A DNA stretch of 64,000 nucleotides, from NCBI GenBank assembly GCA_036679085.1, contig JAZIGM010000053.1:106869-170868 (forward strand), given 5' to 3'. The DNA is from Chloroflexota bacterium (GTDB taxonomy: Bacteria; Chloroflexota; Anaerolineae; Aggregatilineales; UBA3940). The notes below the pieces were generated by a model, which ran no database searches, was not told where the DNA came from, and worked only from the letters and a program-made list of their open reading frames with translations. Both the position numbers and the translations under genes were made by a program. Of this stretch, positions 2,227 through 37,767 are shown piece by piece. Each line of letters begins with the position of its first letter. Position 1 is the stretch's first letter.

Positions 2227-3885
2227 ATGCGCATTCGTCGTGCTGTCATTCTTAGCGCCGTGCTGCTCATCGCGCTGTTCTTAGCAACCATCTCAACGGC
2301 ACAGGCCCAGCAGCGGATCCACATCGTACAGCCGGGGGAAACGCTCTCCGGCATTGCCCTGCGCTACGGCGTGACTGTCCAGCAGATCGCGGCAGTCAAC
2401 AACATTGTCAACCCCTCGCTGATCTTCGTTGGCCAGCGGCTGATCATCCCCGGCCCCGAGCCGCCGCCTCCCGGCGACACGACGACCTACACCGTCCAGC
2501 GTGGAGACACCTTGGGGGGCATCGCACGCCGCTACAACACCACCGTCGCCACGCTGGTGCAGCTCAACGGCCTGACCAACCCCAACCTGATCTTTGTGGG
2601 GCAGGTGCTTGTCGTGCCCGCACCGGCCCAGCCACAGCCCACGGCGACAAGCCCGCAGCAGCCCCAGCCGACCGCCACCTCGGCGCAACCGACGCCCGTC
2701 CCTGAGCGGGTGACGTACACCGTCCAGCGCGGGGACACGCTCTCCCGCATTGCGCTGCGCTACGGCGTCACCGTGCAGGAGCTGGTGATGCTGAACAACA
2801 TCGCTAACCCCAACCTGATCTACCCGGGTCAGGTGCTTATCATCCGGCAGGGGCCTGCGCCGCAGCCGACGGCCACGTCGGTGCCGCCGACGCAAGGCCC
2901 GACCAACACCGCGCCCCCGCCGACAGCGACACAGGTTCCGTCGCGCCTGACGCACACCGTCCAGCGCGGGGAAACGCTCTCCGGTATTGCCCTGCGCTAC
3001 GGCGTGACCGTGCAGGAGCTGGTGCAACTCAACAACATCTCTAACCCCAACCTGATCTACCCCGGTCAGGTGCTCGTCATCCGGCCCGGCCCGCAGCCGA
3101 CCGCCACGGCAGTGCCGCCAACGGCAACCATCGCACCGACCAGCACGAGGGACCCCAACGCGCCGCCGACGGCCTCGCCAACAGCGCTGCCGGGCGGCAT
3201 CCCGACGCCTACGCCCATCGTCCGCCCGACCAGCTCGGCCCCGCTCGGCCCGAACCTGTTTGCCAATCCGGGCTTTGAGGGCAATGCGCGGCAGGTCGGC
3301 GCAACGGGGGTCAACGTGGTCGGCGAGTGGCAGCCCTTCTACTGCGCCGAGCCTTACACCAGCGCGCCCTGCCCGGCGCTGCGCCGGGGTCAGGGCAACC
3401 CCTCCGACCTGCTGATGGGTCGCCCTCGCTTCGATCCGGTGACGGCAGCGAACCGCGTCCACGGCGGCACGTCGGCGCAGTCGTGGGCCTGCCGCTATAT
3501 CACCTGCCGCGCGGGCGTCTTCCAGACGGTCGAGACGCAGCCGGGCAGCCAGTGTGAGGCGGGCGCATACGTGCAGTCGCACAGCTCACACACCTCAGAC
3601 GTGCGATCCGACCTGGCGCTTGGCTCAGACCGCGAGAACTCGGCCTGGCGCATCATCGTGGACCTCAACGGCGGGACGAACGCCTTTGCCCAGGGGAGCA
3701 ACATGCTGTCGAGCCGGACCTTCGGCTACGACGACGGCATCTATGACCAGTTCGCGCTGATCCGCTTCACCTTCACCGCGACGGGGAACCGGACGACCGT
3801 GTTCTTTGAGGACGTGCGGTTGTGGCCGTTCTCCCGCAATGTCAGCTACATCGATGACGCGTACGTGCGCTGCACCACGCCATAG
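2227..3885 (+). CDS. Secreted protein with 4 LysM repeats, Pro/Thr/Gln linkers and a Cys-containing C-terminal CBM-like domain
   Basis: Start moved to ATG 2227 (GGGAG upstream; signal-like [19 protein letters not shown]). Four copies of Y/HxVQxGxTLxxIAxRYxxTVxxLxxxNxxxNPxLIxxGQxLxxP. The C-terminus begins [10 protein letters not shown] and carries 7 Cys. Confidence 0.85.
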
Positions 3886-3959
3886 TTTGGCCCCTTCTGA
3901 ATCAAAAAGGCGGGTGAAGGATTAGCCTTCGCCCGCCTTTGCTGTCTGATCGATGCGTG

Positions 3960-4760
3960 TTACTTCAGCAGCCAGCCGCCGTCCACGACGATCACTTCCC
4001 CGGTGACGTACGTCGTCCCGGCGCTGGCGAGGTACAGCACCGCGTTGGCGATGTCGTCCGGATGCCCCCAGCGGCGCATCGGGATAGCGTTCTGGATTCC
4101 CTGGACCTGCGCCTTGAGTTCCTCCGGGGCAGTCTCGCCGCCGCCCATCCCCGTGCCCGGCGTCGCAACTGCACCGGGAGCCACGGCGTTAACGGTGATC
4201 CCGTGCTCGGCCAGCTCCAGCGCCATGGCCTTCGTCATCATGATCACCGCGCCCTTGGAGGCGTCGTAGTGGACGAGGTTGCCGGACGGGCGGAAGCCGT
4301 CGATGGAGGCGATGTGGATGATGCGCCCGCCGTTCCCCTGCTTGACCATCTGCCGGGCCGCCGCCTGCGAGTGCAGGTAGACGCCCATCACGTTGACGTC
4401 CAGCACCTTCCGCACCATATTGGTGTCGGCCTCAAGGAAGGGGGCCGGCGGGAAGATACCGGCGTTGTTCACGAGAATATCAAGGCTACCAAACGTGTCG
4501 ACCGCCAACTGCGTCACACGTGCTACATCATCAGGGTTGCTGGCATCCGCCTGTGCCGCCAGCGCCCTGCCGCCGCCATTACTGTTAACTTCCTGCACGG
4601 TTCGCTCGGCGCTGGCGAGGTCCAGGTCGGCCACGACGACATTCGCGCCAGCTTCCGCCAGCCGCTTGACGATGCCCGCGCCAATGCCCATCGCGCCGCC
4701 GGTAACGAGCGCCGTCTTGCCGGAAAGGTCATACAGTTCCTGAATAGAGGGTAAAGCCAT
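3960..4760 (-). CDS. Short-chain dehydrogenase/reductase (FabG/glucose-1-DH-like)
   Basis: 266 aa with TGGAMGIG cofactor motif, NNAG, and YDASKGAV catalytic YxxxK. Confidence 0.9.
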   Translation of the reverse strand: MALPSIQELYDLSGKTALVTGGAMGIGAGIVKRLAEAGANVVVADLDLASAERTVQEVNSNGGGRALAAQADASNPDDVARVTQLAVDTFGSLDILVNNAGIFPPAPFLEADTNMVRKVLDVNVMGVYLHSQAAARQMVKQGNGGRIIHIASIDGFRPSGNLVHYDASKGAVIMMTKAMALELAEHGITVNAVAPGAVATPGTGMGGGETAPEELKAQVQGIQNAIPMRRWGHPDDIANAVLYLASAGTTYVTGEVIVVDGGWLLK

Positions 4761-4973
4761 CTGCTGAACTCCTGTCTAGTAAACACCCGATACCATTGAT
4801 TCTCGGGTTAGTGGTCCAGTTAGCGGACCATTCTTTACAAATACGAGTATAATTGCCCTAAAAGTCCCCAACAAGTGAAATTTGTCACAATAAAAACGTT
4901 ACAAGAGCTATTGAGCTATAACGCCTATCCCGCTCCTACCGGCAAGAGTATAATCCGGGTGGAAGGAATTGTT

Positions 4974-5204
4974 ATGCGGGGGTGCATGATGACCAACTCG
5001 ACACTGGAGGACCAGCTTATTGAGCAGATCCGGCGCATGAATCGCGAGCAACAGCAGCAGATGCTTGATTACGCTCAGTCCCTGCTCCGCCCTCGCGGCC
5101 TCTCAGGAAAGGAGATGATCGAGCTAGCTCGCCAGCTCAACTTCCCCAAAGAGGACCTGGAAGAAATGAGGGCAGCGATCGAAGAAGAATGCGAGAGAAT
5201 TTAA
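4974..5204 (+). CDS. Small (76 aa) antitoxin-like protein, no partner toxin gene
   Basis: ATG 4974 is preceded by GGAAGGA; TATAAT at 4949-4954. Sequence ...LIEQIRRMNREQQQQMLDYAQSLL...GKEMIELARQLNFPKEDLEEMRAAIEEECERI resembles small type II antitoxin-like proteins I recall from cyanobacteria/Chloroflexi. It sits in a low-GC pocket. The start is uncertain (track ORF begins at 4875). Confidence 0.5.
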   Translation: MRGCMMTNSTLEDQLIEQIRRMNREQQQQMLDYAQSLLRPRGLSGKEMIELARQLNFPKEDLEEMRAAIEEECERI

Positions 5205-5221
5205 CCATACTGAAATCAAAC

Positions 5222-5250
5222 AAAACGACCGGCGTTGTGCCGGTCGTTTT
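5222..5250. terminator. Bidirectional intrinsic terminator between the small ORF and gyrB
   Basis: AAAA-CGACCGGC-GTTGT-GCCGGTCG-TTTT: 8-bp GC stem with an A-run on one side and a T-run on the other, between convergent genes. Confidence 0.75.
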
Positions 5251-5301
5251 CTTAAGCGATCAATTTAGTGATTGAGAGACTAGTCCCCGTTTCTCGCCAC
5301 C

Positions 5302-7245
5302 TTACACGTCCAGGTTGCGCACGTTCTTCGCGTGCGTCGTGATGAACCGCTTGCGCGGCGGCACGCTGCTGCCCATCAGCATGTCGAACGTGCGGTCGGC
5401 AGCGGCGGCATCTTCGATCGTCACCTGCAGCAGGATGCGGTTCTCCGGCTGCATGGTCGTCTCCCAGAGCTGCTCCGGGTTCATCTCGCCCAGCCCCTTG
5501 TAGCGCTGGATCTCCAGCTTCTTGCCGTTGAGTTGCTGGACCAGCGCCGTGCGCTCCGCCTCGCTGTAGGCATAGTAGCGCTCGCGCCCGGCTTTGATGA
5601 GGTACAGCGGCGGCTGCGCGATGTACAGGTGCCCCTCCTCGATCAACTCCGGCATGTAGCGGAAGAAGAACGTCAGGAGCAGCGTACGGATGTGCGCGCC
5701 GTCCACGTCGGCGTCCGTCATGATGATGATGCGCCCGTAGCGCAGCTTCGTCAGGTCGAACTCCTCGCCGATGCCGACGCCCAGCGCCGAGATCAGCGCC
5801 TGGATCTCCTTGTTGTCCAGCACGCGGTCCAGCCGGGCGCGCTCGGTGTTGAGGATCTTGCCGCGCAGCGGCAGGATGGCCTGGAAGTGCCGGTCGCGCC
5901 CCTGCTTGGCGCTGCCGCCTGCGCTGTCGCCCTCGACGATGTACAGCTCCGTCTCCTCCGGGTTGGTCGAGGAGCAGTCGGCCAGCTTGCCGGGTAGCGT
6001 CGTGCTCTGAAGCGGGCTGCTGCGGATGAGGTCGCGCGCACGCTTGGACGCGATCCGCGCCCGCGCCGACACCAGCGCCTTGTCATAGATTGCCTTGGCG
6101 CTGCGGGTGTCCATCTGCAGGAACTCGCCGAACTTGTCGTTGACGAGCGACTGCACCAGCCCCTTGACCTCCGAGTTCATGAGCTTGACCTTCGTCTGGC
6201 TCTCGAACTGCGGGTCCGGGTGCTTGATGCTGACGATAGCCGTCAGACCTTCGCGGGTATCGTCGCCGGTGAAGTTCGGGTCGTTGTCCTTCAGCACGCC
6301 AGCCTTACGCGCATGGAAGTTGATGGCGCGGGTCAGCGCCGCGCGCAGGCCCTCCAGGTGCGTGCCGCCGTCCGGCGTGTTGATGGTGTTAGCGAAGGCC
6401 AGCACCGACTCGGCGTAGTAGTCCGCATACTGCACCGCGAACTCGATCTCAATCGTGCCGATGTTCTCCACCTCGTACGATCCGCTCGCGTACACCACGT
6501 CGTGCAGCGGCTTGCGGTTGCGGTTCAGGTAGCGGACGAACGAGGCGATCCCGCCCTCGAAGTAGAAGCAGGTTTCCCGCGGAAAGGGTTCGACGCGCTC
6601 GTCACGAAGCTCGATGGTCACGCCGCGCGTCACGAACGCCATCTCGCGGAAGCGCGTGCGCAGCAGGTCGTAGCTAAACTCGGTCTCGGGGAAGATGTCC
6701 GGGTCGGGCCAGAAGAGCGTACGCGTGCCGGTGACGCCGTCATGCTCGCCGATCACCTCGACCTCAGTGACGGGCACGCCGCGCTTGTAGCGCTGGCGAT
6801 AGATCTTGCCATCGCGTGAATAGACCGTGACCTCACACCCGCGTGAGAGGGCGTTAACTGCCGTCACACCGACGCCGTGCAGGCCGCCCGACACCTTGTA
6901 AGCCCCGTCACCAAACTTACCACCGGCGTGAAGCTCAGTCATGACGAGCTGGAGTGTCGAGATGCCCTCGGTGGGGTGAATGCCGACCGGGATACCGCGC
7001 CCGTTGTCTACGACCTCGACGCCCCCATCCTTGCGCAGCGTAACCTTAATGTTGTCGGCGTAGCCTGCCAGTGCCTCGTCGATCGAGTTGTCAACCACCT
7101 CAAAGATGAGATGGTGCAGCGCTTTCAGGTCCGTGCCGCCGACATACATGCCGGGCCGCATACGGATGGCTTCAAGGCCGCTCAGGTGCTGGATCTGGCG
7201 CTCGGTATATTCGGTTTCTACTCTCGGCTTTGTCTTGCTCGCCAT
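5302..7245 (-). CDS. gyrB: DNA gyrase subunit B
   Basis: 647 aa with [45 protein letters not shown] and [12 protein letters not shown], covering the GHKL ATPase plus Toprim domains. Confidence 0.97.
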
Positions 7246-21983: not shown

Positions 21984-22066
21984 GCCGGAGTGGCGGAATG
22001 GCAGACGCGGCGCACTCAAAATGCGTTGCCCTCGCGGGCGTGTGGGTTCGACTCCCACCTCCGGCA
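21984..22066 (+). tRNA. tRNA-Leu(CAA): tRNA-Leu, anticodon CAA (long variable arm, CCA not encoded)
   Basis: Acceptor GCCGGAG/CTCCGGC+A, anticodon loop CUCAAAA, variable arm TGCCCTCGCGGGCGT, T-arm GTGGG-TTCGACT-CCCAC. Confidence 0.93.
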
Positions 22067-28081: not shown

Positions 28082-29122
28082 ATGCAGTACGAAGCTGAAG
28101 TCCTGCCCGGCCTGAAGCGCTTTGCCACCGCCGAGCTTGAGCGCCGCTTTGGCGATCAGGTCACCATCCACCACAGCCGCAAAGAAGACACGCTGCCCTT
28201 CACCTACCGGGGCGACGCCTACGACCTGCTCGGGCTGCGCACCGTCGTTGCCGTCTATCGCCTGCTCCGCTTCGACATCCCCCGGCCCAGGGCGCTGCTG
28301 GGCCACGAGCACTTCCACCGACTCCTCGACGAGATCCACGAGATTGAGCGGCTACACCCGCCGCGCTCGTTCCGCACGTTCCGCTTCAGCGCCGCCGGCA
28401 AGGACTCCTCGGTGTTCCAGCGGCTCGGCGACGAGATCGCCGCGCATACCCGCATGGAGAACCAGCCCGACGACGCCGACCTGCTGATGCGGGTCCGCCC
28501 GACGCCGGGCGCGGAGCGCAGTTGGGATGTGCTGCTCCGGCTCTCGCCGCGCCCGCTCGCCACGCGGCACTGGCGCGTGTGCGACATGCCCGGCGCGCTG
28601 AACGCCACCATCGCGGCGGCGATGATCGACCTGACCAACCCACAGCCTGACGACTTCTTCTTCAACCCGATGTGCGGCTCCGGCACGCTGCTCATCGAGC
28701 GGCTGGCACGCGGCCCGGCGGACATCGTGGCGGGCTGCGACAACGACATCAACGCGCTGGCCTGCGCCAAACAGAACGTTCAGGAGGCGGCGCTCGGCCA
28801 CCGCATCGACCTGCTGGAGATGGACGCCACCAACCTGGTAGGCATCCCCGACGGCGTATGCACGGCCATCGTCGCCGACCTGCCCTGGGGGCAGCTTGTC
28901 GGCGACCAATCCCAGTTGGACTGGGTGTACCCGGCGGCGCTCGGCGAGTGGGCACGGGTGGCGCGGCCCGGCGCGCGCCTCGTGGTGATCACGCACATGA
29001 TCGAGCTGTTCGAGAGCCTGCTGGGGGATATCGCGCCGCTGTGGTCGCTGGTGGATGCGGTGAAGGTGTTTCAGGGCGGGCTGCACCCGCGCATCTACGC
29101 CTTCGTGCGCACAGAGCGGTGA
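28082..29122 (+). CDS. THUMP-domain class I SAM-dependent RNA (N2-G / N6-A type) methyltransferase
   Basis: 346 aa. N-terminal THUMP-like region, FNPMCGSGTLLIE motif I, ADLPWG catalytic (D/N)PPW-like motif. Confidence 0.8.
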   Translation: MQYEAEVLPGLKRFATAELERRFGDQVTIHHSRKEDTLPFTYRGDAYDLLGLRTVVAVYRLLRFDIPRPRALLGHEHFHRLLDEIHEIERLHPPRSFRTFRFSAAGKDSSVFQRLGDEIAAHTRMENQPDDADLLMRVRPTPGAERSWDVLLRLSPRPLATRHWRVCDMPGALNATIAAAMIDLTNPQPDDFFFNPMCGSGTLLIERLARGPADIVAGCDNDINALACAKQNVQEAALGHRIDLLEMDATNLVGIPDGVCTAIVADLPWGQLVGDQSQLDWVYPAALGEWARVARPGARLVVITHMIELFESLLGDIAPLWSLVDAVKVFQGGLHPRIYAFVRTER

Positions 29123-30659: not shown

Positions 30660-30786
30660 CACGTATGCGGCTGCCGGGGTGCGGCGTCGCCCGTGCCCCG
30701 GCATTTTTCCGCATAGACATCCCCGCCTGCTTCCTCTACAATTACGGGGTATTCAACCTCCCCACATCCAAGCGAGGACCAACCTG

Positions 30787-31416
30787 ATGACCCATTCCAC
30801 TCAGTTCCCGGACGGAGTCAGCGCCATTGTGACCGGCGGCGGGCGCGGCATTGGCGCGGCGCTCGCGCGGGCGCTTGGCGCGGCGGGCGTGCGTGTATGC
30901 GTCAATGACCTCAACCCCGACCGCGCCGAGCAGGTCGCGGCGGCGATCGTGGAGGCGGGCGGCGAGGCATTCGCCTGGCAGGGCGATGTCGCCAACAAGT
31001 TCCAGCTTGCCGGGATGATCGAAACCACGCGGGACCGCTACGGCAGCCACCTGCACCTGCTCGTCCATAACGCCCACGTCAGCCCGCGCCAGCCGGCCTT
31101 GAAGATGGACGAGTGGGACCTGCGGCGCACCGTCGAGGTCAACCTGATCGGCGCGTACCTGGCCGCACAGCTTGCTGCGCGGGTGATGGCCGACGAGGGC
31201 GGCGGGCTGATCGCCCTGCTGACCCGCGAGCCGGGCGAGGGCGGCGCGGCGTTCGCCGCCACGCAGGGGGCGCTCGGCGCGCTCGCCGCCGCGCTCGATG
31301 CCGAGGTGCGCGCTCAGGGCGTGCGGGTGCAGGCTGTGCCGGTCGGTACGGAGGCGGAAACCGTCGAGCGGGTGCTGGCGCTCGCCCGCGAGGCGATCGG
31401 CGGGCTGGCGGGCTGA
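30787..31416 (+). CDS. SDR-like protein lacking the catalytic Tyr and Lys
   Basis: Start at ATG 30787. VTGGGRGIGAALA cofactor motif is present, but the YxxxK position reads FAATQGAL and the Ser position reads T. Confidence 0.7.
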   Translation: MTHSTQFPDGVSAIVTGGGRGIGAALARALGAAGVRVCVNDLNPDRAEQVAAAIVEAGGEAFAWQGDVANKFQLAGMIETTRDRYGSHLHLLVHNAHVSPRQPALKMDEWDLRRTVEVNLIGAYLAAQLAARVMADEGGGLIALLTREPGEGGAAFAATQGALGALAAALDAEVRAQGVRVQAVPVGTEAETVERVLALAREAIGGLAG

Positions 31417-31470
31417 ACCTCACCCCATCGCCACTGCGTTGCGCCCCGTGGAGTTGGCTGCGCCGACTCC
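31417..31470. repeat. AACCTCACCCC ... GAGTTGGCTGCGCCGACTCC repeat
   Basis: Same modules as 21625-21658. Confidence 0.75.
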
Positions 31471-31603
31471 CCCCTCCCTGCGGCGTGGAGGGATGGGGGG
31501 TGGGGTTGAAAGCAGCGCACCACGCGAGCCCCTTTGCCCTCGATTCGGCACGATGCTATGCTATCATCAACGTGTGACCCACTACCATGAGGAAGGGACG
31601 CGC

Positions 31604-31936
31604 ATGGCAGACCATTTCGATTACCACTTCTTAATTCTGCCGCCGGAACTGCCGGGAGCCTGGTTCACGCAGGCCGCGCGCGAGTACTGGCTGAAGTTCC
31701 AGCCCATCGTTACTCAGGACACTGAACTCCTGTCCTTCATCCACCCCGACGCGACAATTGCCGTAACGGTTCTCGCAACCGAGCAGGCTGCGGAGAGAAT
31801 CAAGCGCCAGCTCAGGGCGCTGCGCCGGGATGTTCACCTTGACGTCATCATCGCCGAGGACCTGCCACGCCTTGAGTCCCGTCTGAACCAGCGCGCCGCC
31901 GCGGAACAGCGCTTTGGAACGGAGGAACGAGCATGA
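31604..31936 (+). CDS. 110-aa protein consisting of one copy of an unassigned ~100-aa domain (also at the C-terminus of the next gene)
   Basis: ATG 31604 behind GAGGAAGGG. 29 of 99 positions are identical (gapless hand alignment) to residues 713-811 of the next ORF; both end in RFG. ATGA overlap with the next gene. Confidence 0.7.
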   Translation: MADHFDYHFLILPPELPGAWFTQAAREYWLKFQPIVTQDTELLSFIHPDATIAVTVLATEQAAERIKRQLRALRRDVHLDVIIAEDLPRLESRLNQRAAAEQRFGTEERA

Positions 31937-34368
31937 ATCTGCAAGATTACGAGTGGTCCCACAACCCGCGCGGCCTGCAGAACAAAGGCCCGTTCCAATC
32001 CGTCGATCCGCGCCGCTACACCCGCCCGCAGGCCGGCTGGGCCGCGCTGGTCGTGGGCGGCGACGAATATGTGGACGAAGCCGCCGAGCTGGTCGAGAGC
32101 GGGGTGACGCCCATCGTGCGCATCCACCGCTCCAGCCCCGGCGCGATGCCCGTGCCCGACGACTGGTACGCCACGCTCCGGGAGTACCGCAGCGTGGGCG
32201 TGCGCTGGTTTGAGCTGTACAGCGAGCCTAACACCGAGGACTTCTGGCCGCAGCGCTCGGTCGAGGTGACGTGGGAGAACGGCGACGCGATCGGGCCGCT
32301 GATGGATAACTGGCTCGACTGGGCGGAGCGCATCATTGAGATGGGCGGCTACCCGGCCTTCCCGGCGCTCGCTGCCAGCGCCGACCGCGCCACGTCTACC
32401 GTGTACTGGCTCGATGCCATGCTGCGCTACCTCAAGGAGGTCCACGCCGACCGCTTCCTGCGAGTCGTTGGGCGCGGGCTGTGGGCCGCCACACACCCGC
32501 GCATCGGCAACCACTTCTATCAGGAGCCGCCGGGCGGCCCGCCGAACGTCGCCCGCCCCTACTACCAGCAGAGCGCAGACGAGGGCGGCTGGCACTTCGA
32601 GTACCCCTATGACCCGATCATGCAGCACCATGACCCGGGCCGGACGGTGTTCCGGGGCAGCGGCAGCGCCGCGCGCTTCGGCGATGTTGGCGGGCTGGTG
32701 GCGGCAGGCGAGGCGTTCATCCAGCTTTTGAAGCACCACCTCGACGCCGGGCCGGTGCCCGTCGTCGGTACGGCAGGCGGCATCCTGCCCATTCCGCAGA
32801 AGGACGGCAGCCCGCTCCAGCCAGACACAGCCTATCCGCCCTACAACATCGAATCGCACGCCGAGGCCGTCGTGGCGATGTGGAAGTGGATCGTGCGGCA
32901 GGGGCCGCCGTGGTTCTTTGGCATGTGCCTCAGCGATGAGAGCGCCTTCTACGAGGCGCAGGGCATCCTCCCGGCCATCGAGCGCATGGCCGATGACCCG
33001 CCGCTGCGCAAGCAGGTGCCGGGCATCGACACGGGCGGCATTTTCGAGCCGGAGCCTGAACCGGAAGATGAGTTCGTCGTGGATGGCGAGGCGACGCCCA
33101 TCGACGACGATGAAGAGCTGCCCGCCTGGCTCGCCGAGGCCCAGTATCGCGCCGATGCCGAGCAGGACGCAACAGGCCGCCGCGAGGCGAAAGAACCTGA
33201 CAGCGAGGACGAGCCGGAACCGTTCCAGACGAGCGGGTTTGACAACGAGGCCGGGGAGATGCCGTTCAGCGAGGCGGAGAACGGTGAGTACGCGCCCGAC
33301 CGCGACGAGGAGGGCGAAATCCCTGCCTGGCTGGCCGAGGAACTGCCGGAGGAGGAGCTTCAAGAGTTGCTGGGCGGCACCCCCGCCGATCAGCCGGGGG
33401 AGGAGTCGCTTGAGGAGTTGATCGCCATCGACACGCCGGAGGAGCCTCTCGAATCCTACCAGACGGACGCGGCATGGATGGCCTCCGAGATGGGCCGCCC
33501 CGAGTCCGAGGTCGAACCCGATTACGAAGACCTCACCGGGCAGACCGTGGACGCCTGGGAGGAGCCGGAGACGGCGAGTGCTGTGCCCGGCATCGAGGGA
33601 ATCAGCGACCTCCCGGAAGACATGCAGGAGGAGCTTGCCGACCTCACCGGCGCGGAGTACCCCGAAGAACTTGCGGAAATGACCGGGGAGGACGACTGGG
33701 AAGAGGACCTCGGCGGTGATCAGCCCGAACCGCTGCCGCCCGACCTGGAGGAAACCGAGGACGTTCTGCTCGAACCGCTTGGCGGCGCGGCCATCCCGCC
33801 CGAGATGGAGGACCGCGAGCCGTCCGGTGGTGAACTTCAGGGCGCGGCCATGTCCTGGGAGGGCGAGACGGAGCCGGGCGAGGACACCGACGATGAGATT
33901 GTAGACATGACCGGCGACTGGTCGGAGGAGGAGTTCAGCGATACGGCTCCCGCCAGCGATCAGCCCGCCGTCGAGATGGTCGCGCAGTCGGCGCCCGATG
34001 AGACGCCTGCAGAGGGCGAGCAGGCCGCCGGGCAGGCTCTCAGCGACGAGGCGTCCGCACAGGTTGCGCATCACTGGCTGGTGTTCGCACCCGGCGTGGA
34101 CCCCGGCTGGTTCTTCGATGTGGGCTGGCGCTACTGGCAGGAGTTCCGGCCCACCGTCACCGCCGACTGGCGGCAGATGGCGCTCATCCCGGCGGGGCGC
34201 AGCGTCGCGCTGACCATCCTCGCGCGGAGCGAGGATATCGATGAGGTGACGGCGCGCATCAAGGCCTTCCGCCCCGACGTGCTGATCGACCCGGTGGAGT
34301 GTGATACCCGCGAAGACCTGCACCGCGAGTTGGAATGGCGGGCTGTGCGCGGCAGGAGGTTCGGCTGA
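31933..34368 (+). CDS. 811-aa protein: N-terminal GH-A-like (beta/alpha)8 barrel, ~340-aa hyper-acidic linker, C-terminal unassigned domain
   Basis: High GC3. The N-terminal region ...TPIVRIH...VRWFELYSEPN...GGYPAFPALA... resembles clan GH-A glycosidase strands. The linker is D/E/P-rich. The C-terminal 99 aa are paralogous to the upstream ORF. Confidence 0.8.
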   Translation: MNLQDYEWSHNPRGLQNKGPFQSVDPRRYTRPQAGWAALVVGGDEYVDEAAELVESGVTPIVRIHRSSPGAMPVPDDWYATLREYRSVGVRWFELYSEPNTEDFWPQRSVEVTWENGDAIGPLMDNWLDWAERIIEMGGYPAFPALAASADRATSTVYWLDAMLRYLKEVHADRFLRVVGRGLWAATHPRIGNHFYQEPPGGPPNVARPYYQQSADEGGWHFEYPYDPIMQHHDPGRTVFRGSGSAARFGDVGGLVAAGEAFIQLLKHHLDAGPVPVVGTAGGILPIPQKDGSPLQPDTAYPPYNIESHAEAVVAMWKWIVRQGPPWFFGMCLSDESAFYEAQGILPAIERMADDPPLRKQVPGIDTGGIFEPEPEPEDEFVVDGEATPIDDDEELPAWLAEAQYRADAEQDATGRREAKEPDSEDEPEPFQTSGFDNEAGEMPFSEAENGEYAPDRDEEGEIPAWLAEELPEEELQELLGGTPADQPGEESLEELIAIDTPEEPLESYQTDAAWMASEMGRPESEVEPDYEDLTGQTVDAWEEPETASAVPGIEGISDLPEDMQEELADLTGAEYPEELAEMTGEDDWEEDLGGDQPEPLPPDLEETEDVLLEPLGGAAIPPEMEDREPSGGELQGAAMSWEGETEPGEDTDDEIVDMTGDWSEEEFSDTAPASDQPAVEMVAQSAPDETPAEGEQAAGQALSDEASAQVAHHWLVFAPGVDPGWFFDVGWRYWQEFRPTVTADWRQMALIPAGRSVALTILARSEDIDEVTARIKAFRPDVLIDPVECDTREDLHRELEWRAVRGRRFG

Positions 34369-34745
34369 TGGCAGGCGCGCACAGCAGCCTGATTCTGCAC
34401 ATCACCACGCGTGAGGCGTGGCAGGCGGCGACGGAGTCCGGCGAGTATCGGGCAGACTCGCTGGCAAGCCAGGGCTTCATCCACTTCTCGACGCCCACGC
34501 AGGTGGTCAAAGTGGCGAACGCCCTCTACGCCGACCGGGATGACCTTGTGCTGCTCGTTGTGGACGCGACGCAGGTAGCGGACAACCTGCGCTGGGAGCC
34601 ACCCGACGGCCCCGGCACACCGGGCGAGCAGTTCCCGCACCTGTACGCGCCGCTCGATGTGGCGGCGGTTGTCGCCGTTGTGGACTTCCCGCGCGGGGCG
34701 GACGGGTCTTTCACCCTGCCGGAGGCGGTCACGTCGCTGATGTGA
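34368..34745 (+). CDS. DUF952 family protein
   Basis: ATG overlaps the upstream stop (TGATG). ILHITTREAWQAA...GFIHFSTPTQV...LVLLVVD...FPHLYAPLD matches my memory of the DUF952 pattern. Confidence 0.8.
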   Translation: MAGAHSSLILHITTREAWQAATESGEYRADSLASQGFIHFSTPTQVVKVANALYADRDDLVLLVVDATQVADNLRWEPPDGPGTPGEQFPHLYAPLDVAAVVAVVDFPRGADGSFTLPEAVTSLM

Positions 34746-37371: not shown

Positions 37372-37378
37372 CTGACAG

Positions 37379-37767
37379 TGGAGCCGGGGAGAATCGAACT
37401 CCCGTCCAGAAAGTTCGCGCCCTCACGTCTACGAGCGTAGCCGGTTTATTGCATGTTTCGCCCCGCCCCGCGCCAACCGGCAGGCTCGGCTGGGGGCTAG
37501 TCTCCCTTTTGGTCTTAGGTGCTGCCCGGAGACCGGCGAGCACCGCACCAGCGCCTTTATGACGCCCGGAACTCAGCCGACGCTGTCAAACTGAGGCGGA
37601 CGTGACCCCTCGCAAGGGGTCAGCTTGGCTTAGGCTACTTACGCAGCCATCGCCAGAGCAGGTGTCTGCTCGTTGGCATTTATTGTTTTGCACTTTGATC
37701 ACGGAGTCCAGTGCGCTCCGGCTCGCAGTGAGTTTGCATCCCTCCCTGTCGAAGCCATTACGGCCCC
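37379..37767 (-). ncRNA. ssrA: tmRNA (SsrA), tag peptide ANEQTPALAMAA
   Basis: 5' GGGGCCGTAATGGCTTCGACAGGGAGG. 3' GGACGGGAGTTCGATTCTCCCCGGCTCCA with G3-U70 in the acceptor stem. Tag reading frame GCC AAC GAG CAG ACA CCT GCT CTG GCG ATG GCT GCG TAA at 37677-37639. Confidence 0.93.

Follow-up and report, generated by a model that had tools for sequence, protein, structure and literature searches.

Proteins that keep the fold of a glycoside hydrolase (GH) and lack a catalytic residue have been described before, among them the chitinase-like lectins of GH18 and the GH1 repeats of alpha-Klotho. Multimeric wall hydrolases are likewise known in which copies of the binding domain are made separately, as in the phage enzyme PlyC (PlyCA/PlyCB) and in endolysins with internally initiated subunits, and CWB2 is a wall-anchoring module that occurs in three copies. 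The retaining hydrolases of clan GH-A, the '4/7' hydrolases (for instance the GH128 beta-1,3-glucanases, 6uaz; GH5_4, 6mq4; GH51, 6zt9; GH39, 6uqj), have in common a (beta/alpha)8 barrel. CC0527, a DUF952 protein of known structure (PDB 2o0p, 2o0q and 2jqn) related to Tpt1/KptA, resembles the Tpt1 C-terminal domain and has the H-H-h motif, and its function is unknown (PMC8120803). Here we describe a locus with likenesses to these systems. It lies in a stretch of 64,000 nucleotides, called the window below, from a metagenome-assembled genome (MAG) of the Aggregatilineales (Chloroflexota, class Anaerolineae). The locus consists of three overlapping open reading frames (ORFs): ORF1 encodes a small domain, ORF2 joins a GH-like barrel to a second copy of that domain through a long acidic linker, and ORF3 encodes a DUF952 protein.

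The locus is a real, conserved and uncharacterised operon of the Anaerolineae. On the reading that we favour as a whole, for which we consider the chances of being right and of being wrong to be about equal, ORF2 would be a glycan-binding scaffold derived from a glycosidase, and ORF1 would complete a two-copy module for binding or assembly. The original prediction had taken the three ORFs for a translationally coupled trio; their coordinates (Table 1) and both overlaps, ATGA at 31933-31936 between ORF1 and ORF2 and TGATG at 34366-34370 between ORF2 and ORF3, were reproduced. Identical proteins are listed at NCBI, from Aggregatilineales MAGs, as the hypothetical proteins HOA23083.1 and HOA23082.1 and the DUF952 protein HOA23081.1.

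The N-terminal portion of ORF2 was modelled with AlphaFold2 (AF2) from a 121-sequence alignment as a TIM barrel with eight strand/helix units, at a predicted local distance difference test score (pLDDT) of about 97. Foldseek comparison with the PDB gave GH128 (6uaz) as the top match, with a template modelling (TM) score of 0.71 on the target and an E value of 1e-4, followed by GH5_4 and GH51; GH84, which stands outside clan GH-A, also ranked high. These results bear out the earlier reading of the N-terminal ~370 residues as a clan GH-A (beta/alpha)8 barrel. The two segments that had been singled out as candidate active-site strands, VRWFELYSEPN and VVGTAGG, are both present, and AF2 assigns to them the strands E92-94 and E277-279, respectively. 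In the model, E98, the NEP-type Glu, follows the fourth strand and the TEGG/TAGG motif follows the seventh, which is the canonical 4/7 arrangement. Across the wider ORF2 family the likeness to the clan extends to the N-E-P Glu after strand 4, a Glu after strand 7, and Arg, His and Trp at conserved positions, as is typical of clan GH-A. The family differs from the clan in that strands 6 and 7 are separated by a long conserved insertion (FYQEPPGG...WHFEYPYDP), that identity to solved structures is only ~10%, and that no Pfam or NCBIfam family matches by sequence.

Pfam returned no match at E<=5 for 44 members of the ORF2 family, and no match to ORF2 was found in NCBIfam, in PADLOC or among PDB sequences (phmmer/hmmsearch). 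The best PDB sequence for a profile of the family, a GH39 xylosidase, was not significant (E 0.22); its alignment falls precisely on the WFE(L/V)(Y/W)NEPN strand. No existing sequence-defined GH family could thus be found for the N-terminal domain through Pfam, NCBIfam or PDB profile search; within a well-known clan and fold, the domain is new and unclassified. Among the homologues, 290 are without a Pfam domain and are unnamed or "hypothetical"; those with names come from Chloroflexota MAGs. A scan of 185,579 species genomes yielded 239 ORF2-family loci, of which the best 80 are all from Chloroflexota and nearly all carry Anaerolineae-class labels. Within the collections searched, the ORF1 and ORF2 gene pair is confined to the Chloroflexota class Anaerolineae.

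Active-site positions and the linker were compared in 169 non-redundant full-length relatives. At the strand-7 position, 146 have the Glu of TEGG and 23 have another residue (20 Ala, 1 Ser, 1 Thr and 1 Arg). ORF2 of the window carries GTAGG, with Ala281 (codon 32773-32775), where 146 relatives carry GTEGG, and hence lacks the nucleophile Glu that marks clan GH-A at the end of strand 7. E98 (codon 32224-32226) is retained, and is invariant or near-invariant across the sampled family alignments. The Asn before it is conserved at >=95% among Glu-type relatives; the window protein has Ser there, and most of its subclade Ser or Glu. The changes at otherwise conserved pocket positions in window ORF2 are E281A, N97S, W334S, R300A, H16Q and K38A, and the Ala-type clade has lost, among the positions conserved at >=95% in the Glu type, the NEP Asn, W334 (replaced by Ser/Thr), R300, H16, K38, E104 and T313. 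The window protein departs from clan GH-A in its Ala at the nucleophile and its Ser for the NEP Asn, as well as in having no signal peptide. The clade nevertheless retains 63-68 of the 73 highly conserved (>=95%) positions, and its identity to distant relatives is 45.8%, against 47.6% for the Glu type; the retained positions and the near-equal divergence point to a pseudoenzyme still under constraint and not to a gene in decay. The suspicion, first raised by the VVGTAGG strand, that ORF2 may not be catalytic has thus gained weight from the relatives and from the loss of further active-site positions, and we predict from the sequence comparisons that ORF2 is a pseudo-glycosidase.

Loss of the nucleophile is accompanied by a long linker. 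All 23 relatives without the nucleophile have a linker of >=102 amino acids, with a median of 296 in the Ala type, and the Glu type has a median of 19, with three long exceptions. The 342-residue linker of window ORF2 is 33% Asp plus Glu and has a net charge of -107; residues 371-701 are disordered in the AF2 model, with pLDDT below 50 for most of the linker. It carries two PAWLAE motifs, of which relatives have up to nine copies, and this repeated element may be a docking motif. In its general form the motif reads hydrophobic-P-[ADE]-W-L-x-[DE], and AF2 predicts short helices there. The two copies lie at 33118-33140 and 33319-33341 (ORF2 residues ~397 and ~464), with no other occurrence in the window; the motif is also found in the 847-residue protein of locus L001 and in protein P0200.

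Like the described pseudo-glycosidases, ORF2 appears to be a carboxylate-less paralogue, under purifying selection, of an apparently active family, and the carboxylate-less form is sometimes encoded beside what looks like the active one: Glu-type short-linker and non-Glu long-linker paralogues stand in tandem in L018 (5995-10324), L022 (2741-6863) and L028 (3404-7611). A DUF952 gene comes after the pair in L018 and L022. The present case differs from the chitinase-like lectins and alpha-Klotho in GH clan and in organisms, and in that the loss is coupled to a disordered polyanionic linker of >100 to ~400 residues.

The second element of the locus is the small domain. ORF1 had been described as a free-standing copy of the last 99 residues of ORF2, on the strength of an ungapped hand count, and BLASTP reproduced that count exactly: 29/99 identities with 0 gaps (E 3e-15) between ORF1 residues 7-105 and ORF2 residues 713-811, both copies ending in RFG. 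In AF2 models (pLDDT 84.7 for ORF1, from a 62-sequence alignment, and 93-97 for the ORF2 C-terminal domain) the two share the order beta-alpha-beta-alpha-beta-alpha-beta-alpha, with four strands. Pfam, NCBIfam, PADLOC and PHROGs gave no match to the domain, and the best PDB sequence for its profile was not significant (E 0.29). Foldseek gave a best E value of 0.06 in the PDB, at TM scores of 0.4-0.5, with weak resemblance to SIS, Argonaute MID, receiver, BRCT and PTS-IIB domains, and nothing significant in BFVD (best E 0.07). From Pfam to BFVD, then, no characterised family came up, and the domain is as unassignable as it had first seemed. We found no description of the domain, or of its split-copy arrangement with a pseudoenzyme, in the resources searched.

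Profile searches with the small domain identified 124 proteins among 1.84 billion cluster representatives, in three architectures: stand-alone proteins of 100-210 residues, in some cases with a tail rich in Pro/Thr; ORF2-family proteins, at their C-terminus; and, at the weak end of the list, leaderless M23 peptidase proteins, at their N-terminus (loci L092-L094). The HxxxD motif of the peptidase is intact in these fusions, and HxH is clear in P0228, P0266 and P0272. Further domains accompany it, SH3_3 in P0254 and a NEP-containing barrel in P0228, P0266 and P0272. The small domain can also be repeated in cis, with two tandem copies in P0228 and, in P0266, one copy at the N-terminus and a weaker match at the C-terminus. 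The gene for P0254 is found among rpoB, gatCA and upp and thus has a chromosomal context. Conserved in the stand-alone, ORF2 C-terminal and M23-fused forms are H8, W20, Y28, F32, T55, D80, R97 and F/L-G at 104-105. Other positions are conserved in one type: YHFL, AAR and QPFG in the stand-alone copies, and an upstream GPGP..G.PD, SLAVTV, PNV and RRFG in the C-terminal ones.

Two stand-alone copies are on average 48% identical, two C-terminal copies 45%, and one of each type 33%. The stand-alone copies form a single clade. Stand-alone and C-terminal copies of the same locus are 32.7% identical and non-cognate pairs 32.8%. Because cognate and non-cognate identities are the same, we conclude that the domain was duplicated once, long ago, that no gene conversion followed and that both copies were kept; gene conversion or a recent duplication between ORF1 and the C-terminal domain is excluded by the equal identities and the single stand-alone clade. 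By analogy with PlyC and the endolysins, a small module is here both fused to a catalytic-type chain and encoded alongside as a separate polypeptide; the copies appear to act in multiples, as they do in PlyC and CWB2; and its distant relatives are carried on M23, SH3b and GH proteins. The domain differs from PlyCB, CWB2 and the PHROGs in having no sequence or fold match to them, and the locus differs from phage lysins in its chromosomal context and in the domain itself, a generic four-stranded alpha/beta sandwich known here from sequence and models.

ORF3 had been called a DUF952 protein, and this family had been grouped with the ADP-ribosyltransferase fold; both points were borne out. ORF3 matches Pfam DUF952 (PF06108) over model positions 1-90 of 90 with 108.3 bits (cut-off 23.7; E 1.8e-31), and Pfam places DUF952 in the ADP-ribosyltransferase clan (PMC7955679), a relationship also given in PMC8120803. 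It aligns collinearly with the CC0527 structure 2o0p (E 7e-14), and the H-H-h motif is present, its GFIHFS and FPHLY aligning with GFIHLS and FPHLY of CC0527, so that GFIH[FL]S and FPHLY are conserved between the two. By these sequence matches ORF3 is a plain member of the DUF952 family. An alternative start, the ATG at 34335 within ORF2, lies 11 codons earlier; the start at 34368 is favoured by the lengths of homologues, by the alignments to Pfam and CC0527 and by the NCBI annotation of 125 residues. CC0527 has been tied by guilt-by-association to ADP-ribosylation of antibiotics (PMC8120803). ORF3 is instead coupled to a predicted pseudoenzyme of GH-like fold and to a glycosyltransferase of GT-C type.

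Conservation of gene order was assessed in 80 genome loci plus the window (81). In 60 of the 81 a stand-alone domain gene lies <=250 bp upstream of the GH-like gene on the same strand, and in four it lies 2.3-2.8 kb upstream; it is absent despite enough flank at 14 loci, and three further loci were undetermined. Some of the loci without it belong to MAGs whose second locus has one. Members that have no C-terminal domain also have no upstream stand-alone gene (L008/L009, L036), and a single stand-alone gene precedes two tandem Glu-type genes in L047, L053, L063, L064 and L076. At two of the four wide-gap loci a YfhO-family (GT-C type) gene stands between the stand-alone and GH-like genes (L018 3730-5886; L022 457-2685). 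At L033 the two genes are split by a putative Ser/Thr kinase gene (3328-5964; ~880 residues, two kinase-like regions), and Pkinase genes occur a few kilobases upstream of the pair in L001 and L010.

Among the 74 loci with enough downstream flank, DUF952 is directly downstream of the GH-like gene in ten, all in the closest clade and following both Glu- and Ala-type genes. Relatives as distant as L001, whose ORF1 homologue shows 52% identity, have it directly downstream, as does L007, and it is not found in the close relatives L010/L011. The trio is thus syntenic in loci outside this genome, but its description as a unit holds for the ORF1 and ORF2 pair and not for DUF952, which is limited to one clade. 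These counts indicate that the pair is the conserved unit and that the DUF952 and GT-C genes were added within particular lineages; its presence at only 10/74 loci rules DUF952 out as a core component. PMT_2 homologues are present at 12/81 loci, and in L007/L020 the gene directly adjoins DUF952. PMT_2 or YfhO genes, both of GT-C type, are adjacent in the window, L007, L018, L022, L028 and others, and a large multi-pass membrane protein is encoded within 3.5 kb at 23/81 loci, mostly in the closest clade. In the window the PMT_2 gene begins 89 nucleotides 3' of ORF3 on the same strand and is possibly part of the same operon.

A history and a mode of action can be proposed from these observations. 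The ancestral protein would have had a clan GH-A-type barrel with the NEP Glu at strand 4 and the TEGG Glu at strand 7, a short linker and the ~100-residue alpha/beta domain; an ancient stand-alone paralogue of this domain would have been encoded just upstream and translationally coupled to the GH-like gene. The subclade of window ORF2 would then have dropped the nucleophile and pocket residues and expanded the linker, in the window to a 342-residue polyanionic disordered region. Such a protein presumably no longer hydrolyses and would bind a glycan or serve as a scaffold, in related genomes often beside an active paralogue; that ORF2 still binds glycan is probable. ORF1 would pair with the C-terminal domain of ORF2 to give a two-copy module, which may bind a shared ligand or may assemble and anchor the complex. 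The target would probably be a cell-envelope glycan, to which the M23, SH3b and GH fusions and the GT-C neighbours tentatively point. The DUF952 protein, with its H-H-h motif intact, would be a lineage-specific, co-translated accessory.

Several points weigh against this proposal. No signal peptide or hydrophobic segment was found in ORF1, ORF2 or ORF3, so an extracytoplasmic role would need unconventional export. The universally conserved His, Thr, Asp and Arg of the small domain could belong to a catalytic centre or bind a small molecule instead of forming an interface. Loss of the nucleophile alone is no strict proof of inactivity, and the Glu-type members are themselves only predicted glycosidases. 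Finally, the GT-C and MurJ neighbours are found mostly in the closest clade and could reflect simple conserved gene order. A bolder version of the proposal, which we regard as unlikely, makes the small domain a hitherto unrecognised, Chloroflexota-specific module and an obligate two-copy unit, in trans (ORF1 with the C-terminal domain of ORF2) or in cis. This unit would target or assemble leaderless wall-remodelling enzymes, both GH-A-like barrels and M23 peptidases, at the cell envelope of these filamentous organisms. A dead, polyanionic, glycan-holding paralogue would have evolved in the lineage of the window, where the co-translated DUF952 protein would control it through NAD+-dependent modification.

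It should also be considered that ORF2 may still be an active carbohydrate enzyme, with another nucleophile, with substrate assistance as in GH18, GH20 and GH84, or with an external anion, and with transglycosylase-, phosphorylase- or synthase-like activity. The retention of the acid/base Glu98 and of 64/73 highly conserved positions agrees with this, as do a constraint on the clade nearly equal to that on the Glu type and the presence of GH84 and of SleL, of GH18 type, among the Foldseek matches. These two matches are weaker than those to GH128 and GH5, however, and their root mean square deviation is poor; ORF2 shows neither the DD nor the DE pair usual in families that rely on substrate assistance; and the NEP Asn, the conserved Trp and Arg and other pocket positions have gone along with the nucleophile. 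An active ORF2 is accordingly improbable in our judgement. We are similarly doubtful that the trio is one obligate system, in which ORF1, ORF2 or a glycan or phosphate bound by ORF2 would be modified by the DUF952 protein at the expense of NAD+, the linker or the small domains being possible targets. The overlap of the ORF3 start with the ORF2 stop (TGATG) and the intact H-x-S and FPHLY motifs speak for such a system, as does the recurrence of DUF952 in the same place as far off as L001 and in L007, and Tpt1 enzymes, which are relatives of DUF952, ADP-ribosylate phosphate groups (PMC8120803). On the other hand, DUF952 follows the GH-like gene at so few loci, all of the closest clade, and close relatives such as L010/L011 do without it; the family is moreover widespread in other contexts, with no activity demonstrated (PMC8120803).

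The two copies of the small domain need not act jointly. ORF1 might instead be a competitor or regulator, a decoy of the C-terminal domain for the same docking site or ligand that would tune the engagement of the GH-like protein. Both copies conserve the same ligand-type residues; the upstream position and coupling of ORF1 would give it a level at least equal to that of ORF2; and at the five loci named above two tandem GH-like genes share a single stand-alone gene. The copy-specific conserved positions fit complementary roles better than redundant ones, however, and the cis duplications seen in M23 fusions suggest joint action by two copies, which leaves a decoy slightly less probable again than an active ORF2 or an obligate trio. 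A last alternative gives no meaning to the resemblance or the coupling: ORF1 would be what is left of a partial duplication, now decaying, and the trio would be a chance outcome of gene order. Only the low identity of the two copies (29%) recommends it, and it is contradicted by the conservation data: ORF1 orthologues have a mean identity of 48%, are monophyletic, lie immediately upstream in 60/81 loci from different Anaerolineae orders, and the exact ORF1 protein is present on 126 contigs. We regard this explanation as effectively excluded.

What the locus offers is a set of well-defined hypotheses, not yet a mechanism explained, and its reach is moderate, as it concerns a single bacterial class. 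The ORF2 barrel is a candidate for a new clan GH-A-type glycoside hydrolase family outside Pfam and NCBIfam, and its pairs of active-looking and decayed paralogues offer a clean system for following the transition from glycosidase to non-catalytic protein. The small domain is new, with a clear signature and an unusual split arrangement, and is present on M23, SH3b and GH proteins as well; it provides a handle on the cell-envelope biology of the Anaerolineae, a class that abounds in digesters and sediments and has seldom been brought into culture. DUF952, whose structure is solved and whose function is unknown, gains a reproducible genomic partner that can guide substrate searches. If NAD+-dependent control of ORF2 by the DUF952 protein were true, ORF2 would be the first physiological partner of that family.

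Table 1. Window coordinates of the ORF1-ORF3 locus and the adjoining glycosyltransferase gene
Feature	Coordinates	Strand	Evidence or remark
Putative Shine-Dalgarno-like element GAGGAAGGG	31589..31597	+	6 nt before ORF1 ATG; seen in sequence
ORF1, 110 aa, stand-alone copy of new ~100-aa alpha/beta domain	31604..31936	+	BLASTP, AF2, synteny
ORF2, 811 aa overall	31933..34368	+	ORF call
ORF2 residues 1-370, clan GH-A-like (beta/alpha)8 barrel	31933..33042	+	AF2, Foldseek, alignments
ORF2 residues 371-712, disordered polyanionic linker	33043..34068	+	AF2 pLDDT, composition
ORF2 residues 713-811 and stop codon, C-terminal copy of alpha/beta domain	34069..34368	+	BLASTP, AF2
ORF3, 125 aa, DUF952/CC0527-like ADP-ribosyltransferase-fold protein	34368..34745	+	Pfam, PDB 2o0p
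PMT_2 (GT-C type) membrane glycosyltransferase, 786 aa	34835..37195	+	Pfam PMT_2 E 4.7e-19

The spacer 5' to ORF1 (31417-31603) had been described as repeat-filled, a claim that did not stand: it holds only short inverted repeats, none beyond chance. Shuffled sequences fold equally well (RNA fold z-score -0.18), and no promoter-like, terminator-like or Rfam matches were found in it. A structured or repeat-filled spacer is ruled out by these results. A phage or defence origin of the locus was also rejected, since ORF1-ORF3 had no PHROG match, no PADLOC match was found at E<=1, and the contexts are chromosomal. The neighbours of the gene pair are chromosomal genes conserved across the Anaerolineae. 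Upstream of the trio, a UPF0020-type methyltransferase and a short-chain dehydrogenase are encoded at 28082-29122 and 30784-31416 in the window, and both also occur a few kilobases upstream in L001 (1-1098). RidA, MurJ, CinA and an Fe-S/CCG protein recur near relatives, and these recurrent flanking genes look like conserved Anaerolineae gene order. Just 3' of the PMT_2 gene, on the opposite strand, is a tmRNA gene at 37376-37767 (-), matched at full length by Rfam RF00023 with 162 bits, and a tRNA is located at 21984-22066 (+) in the window.

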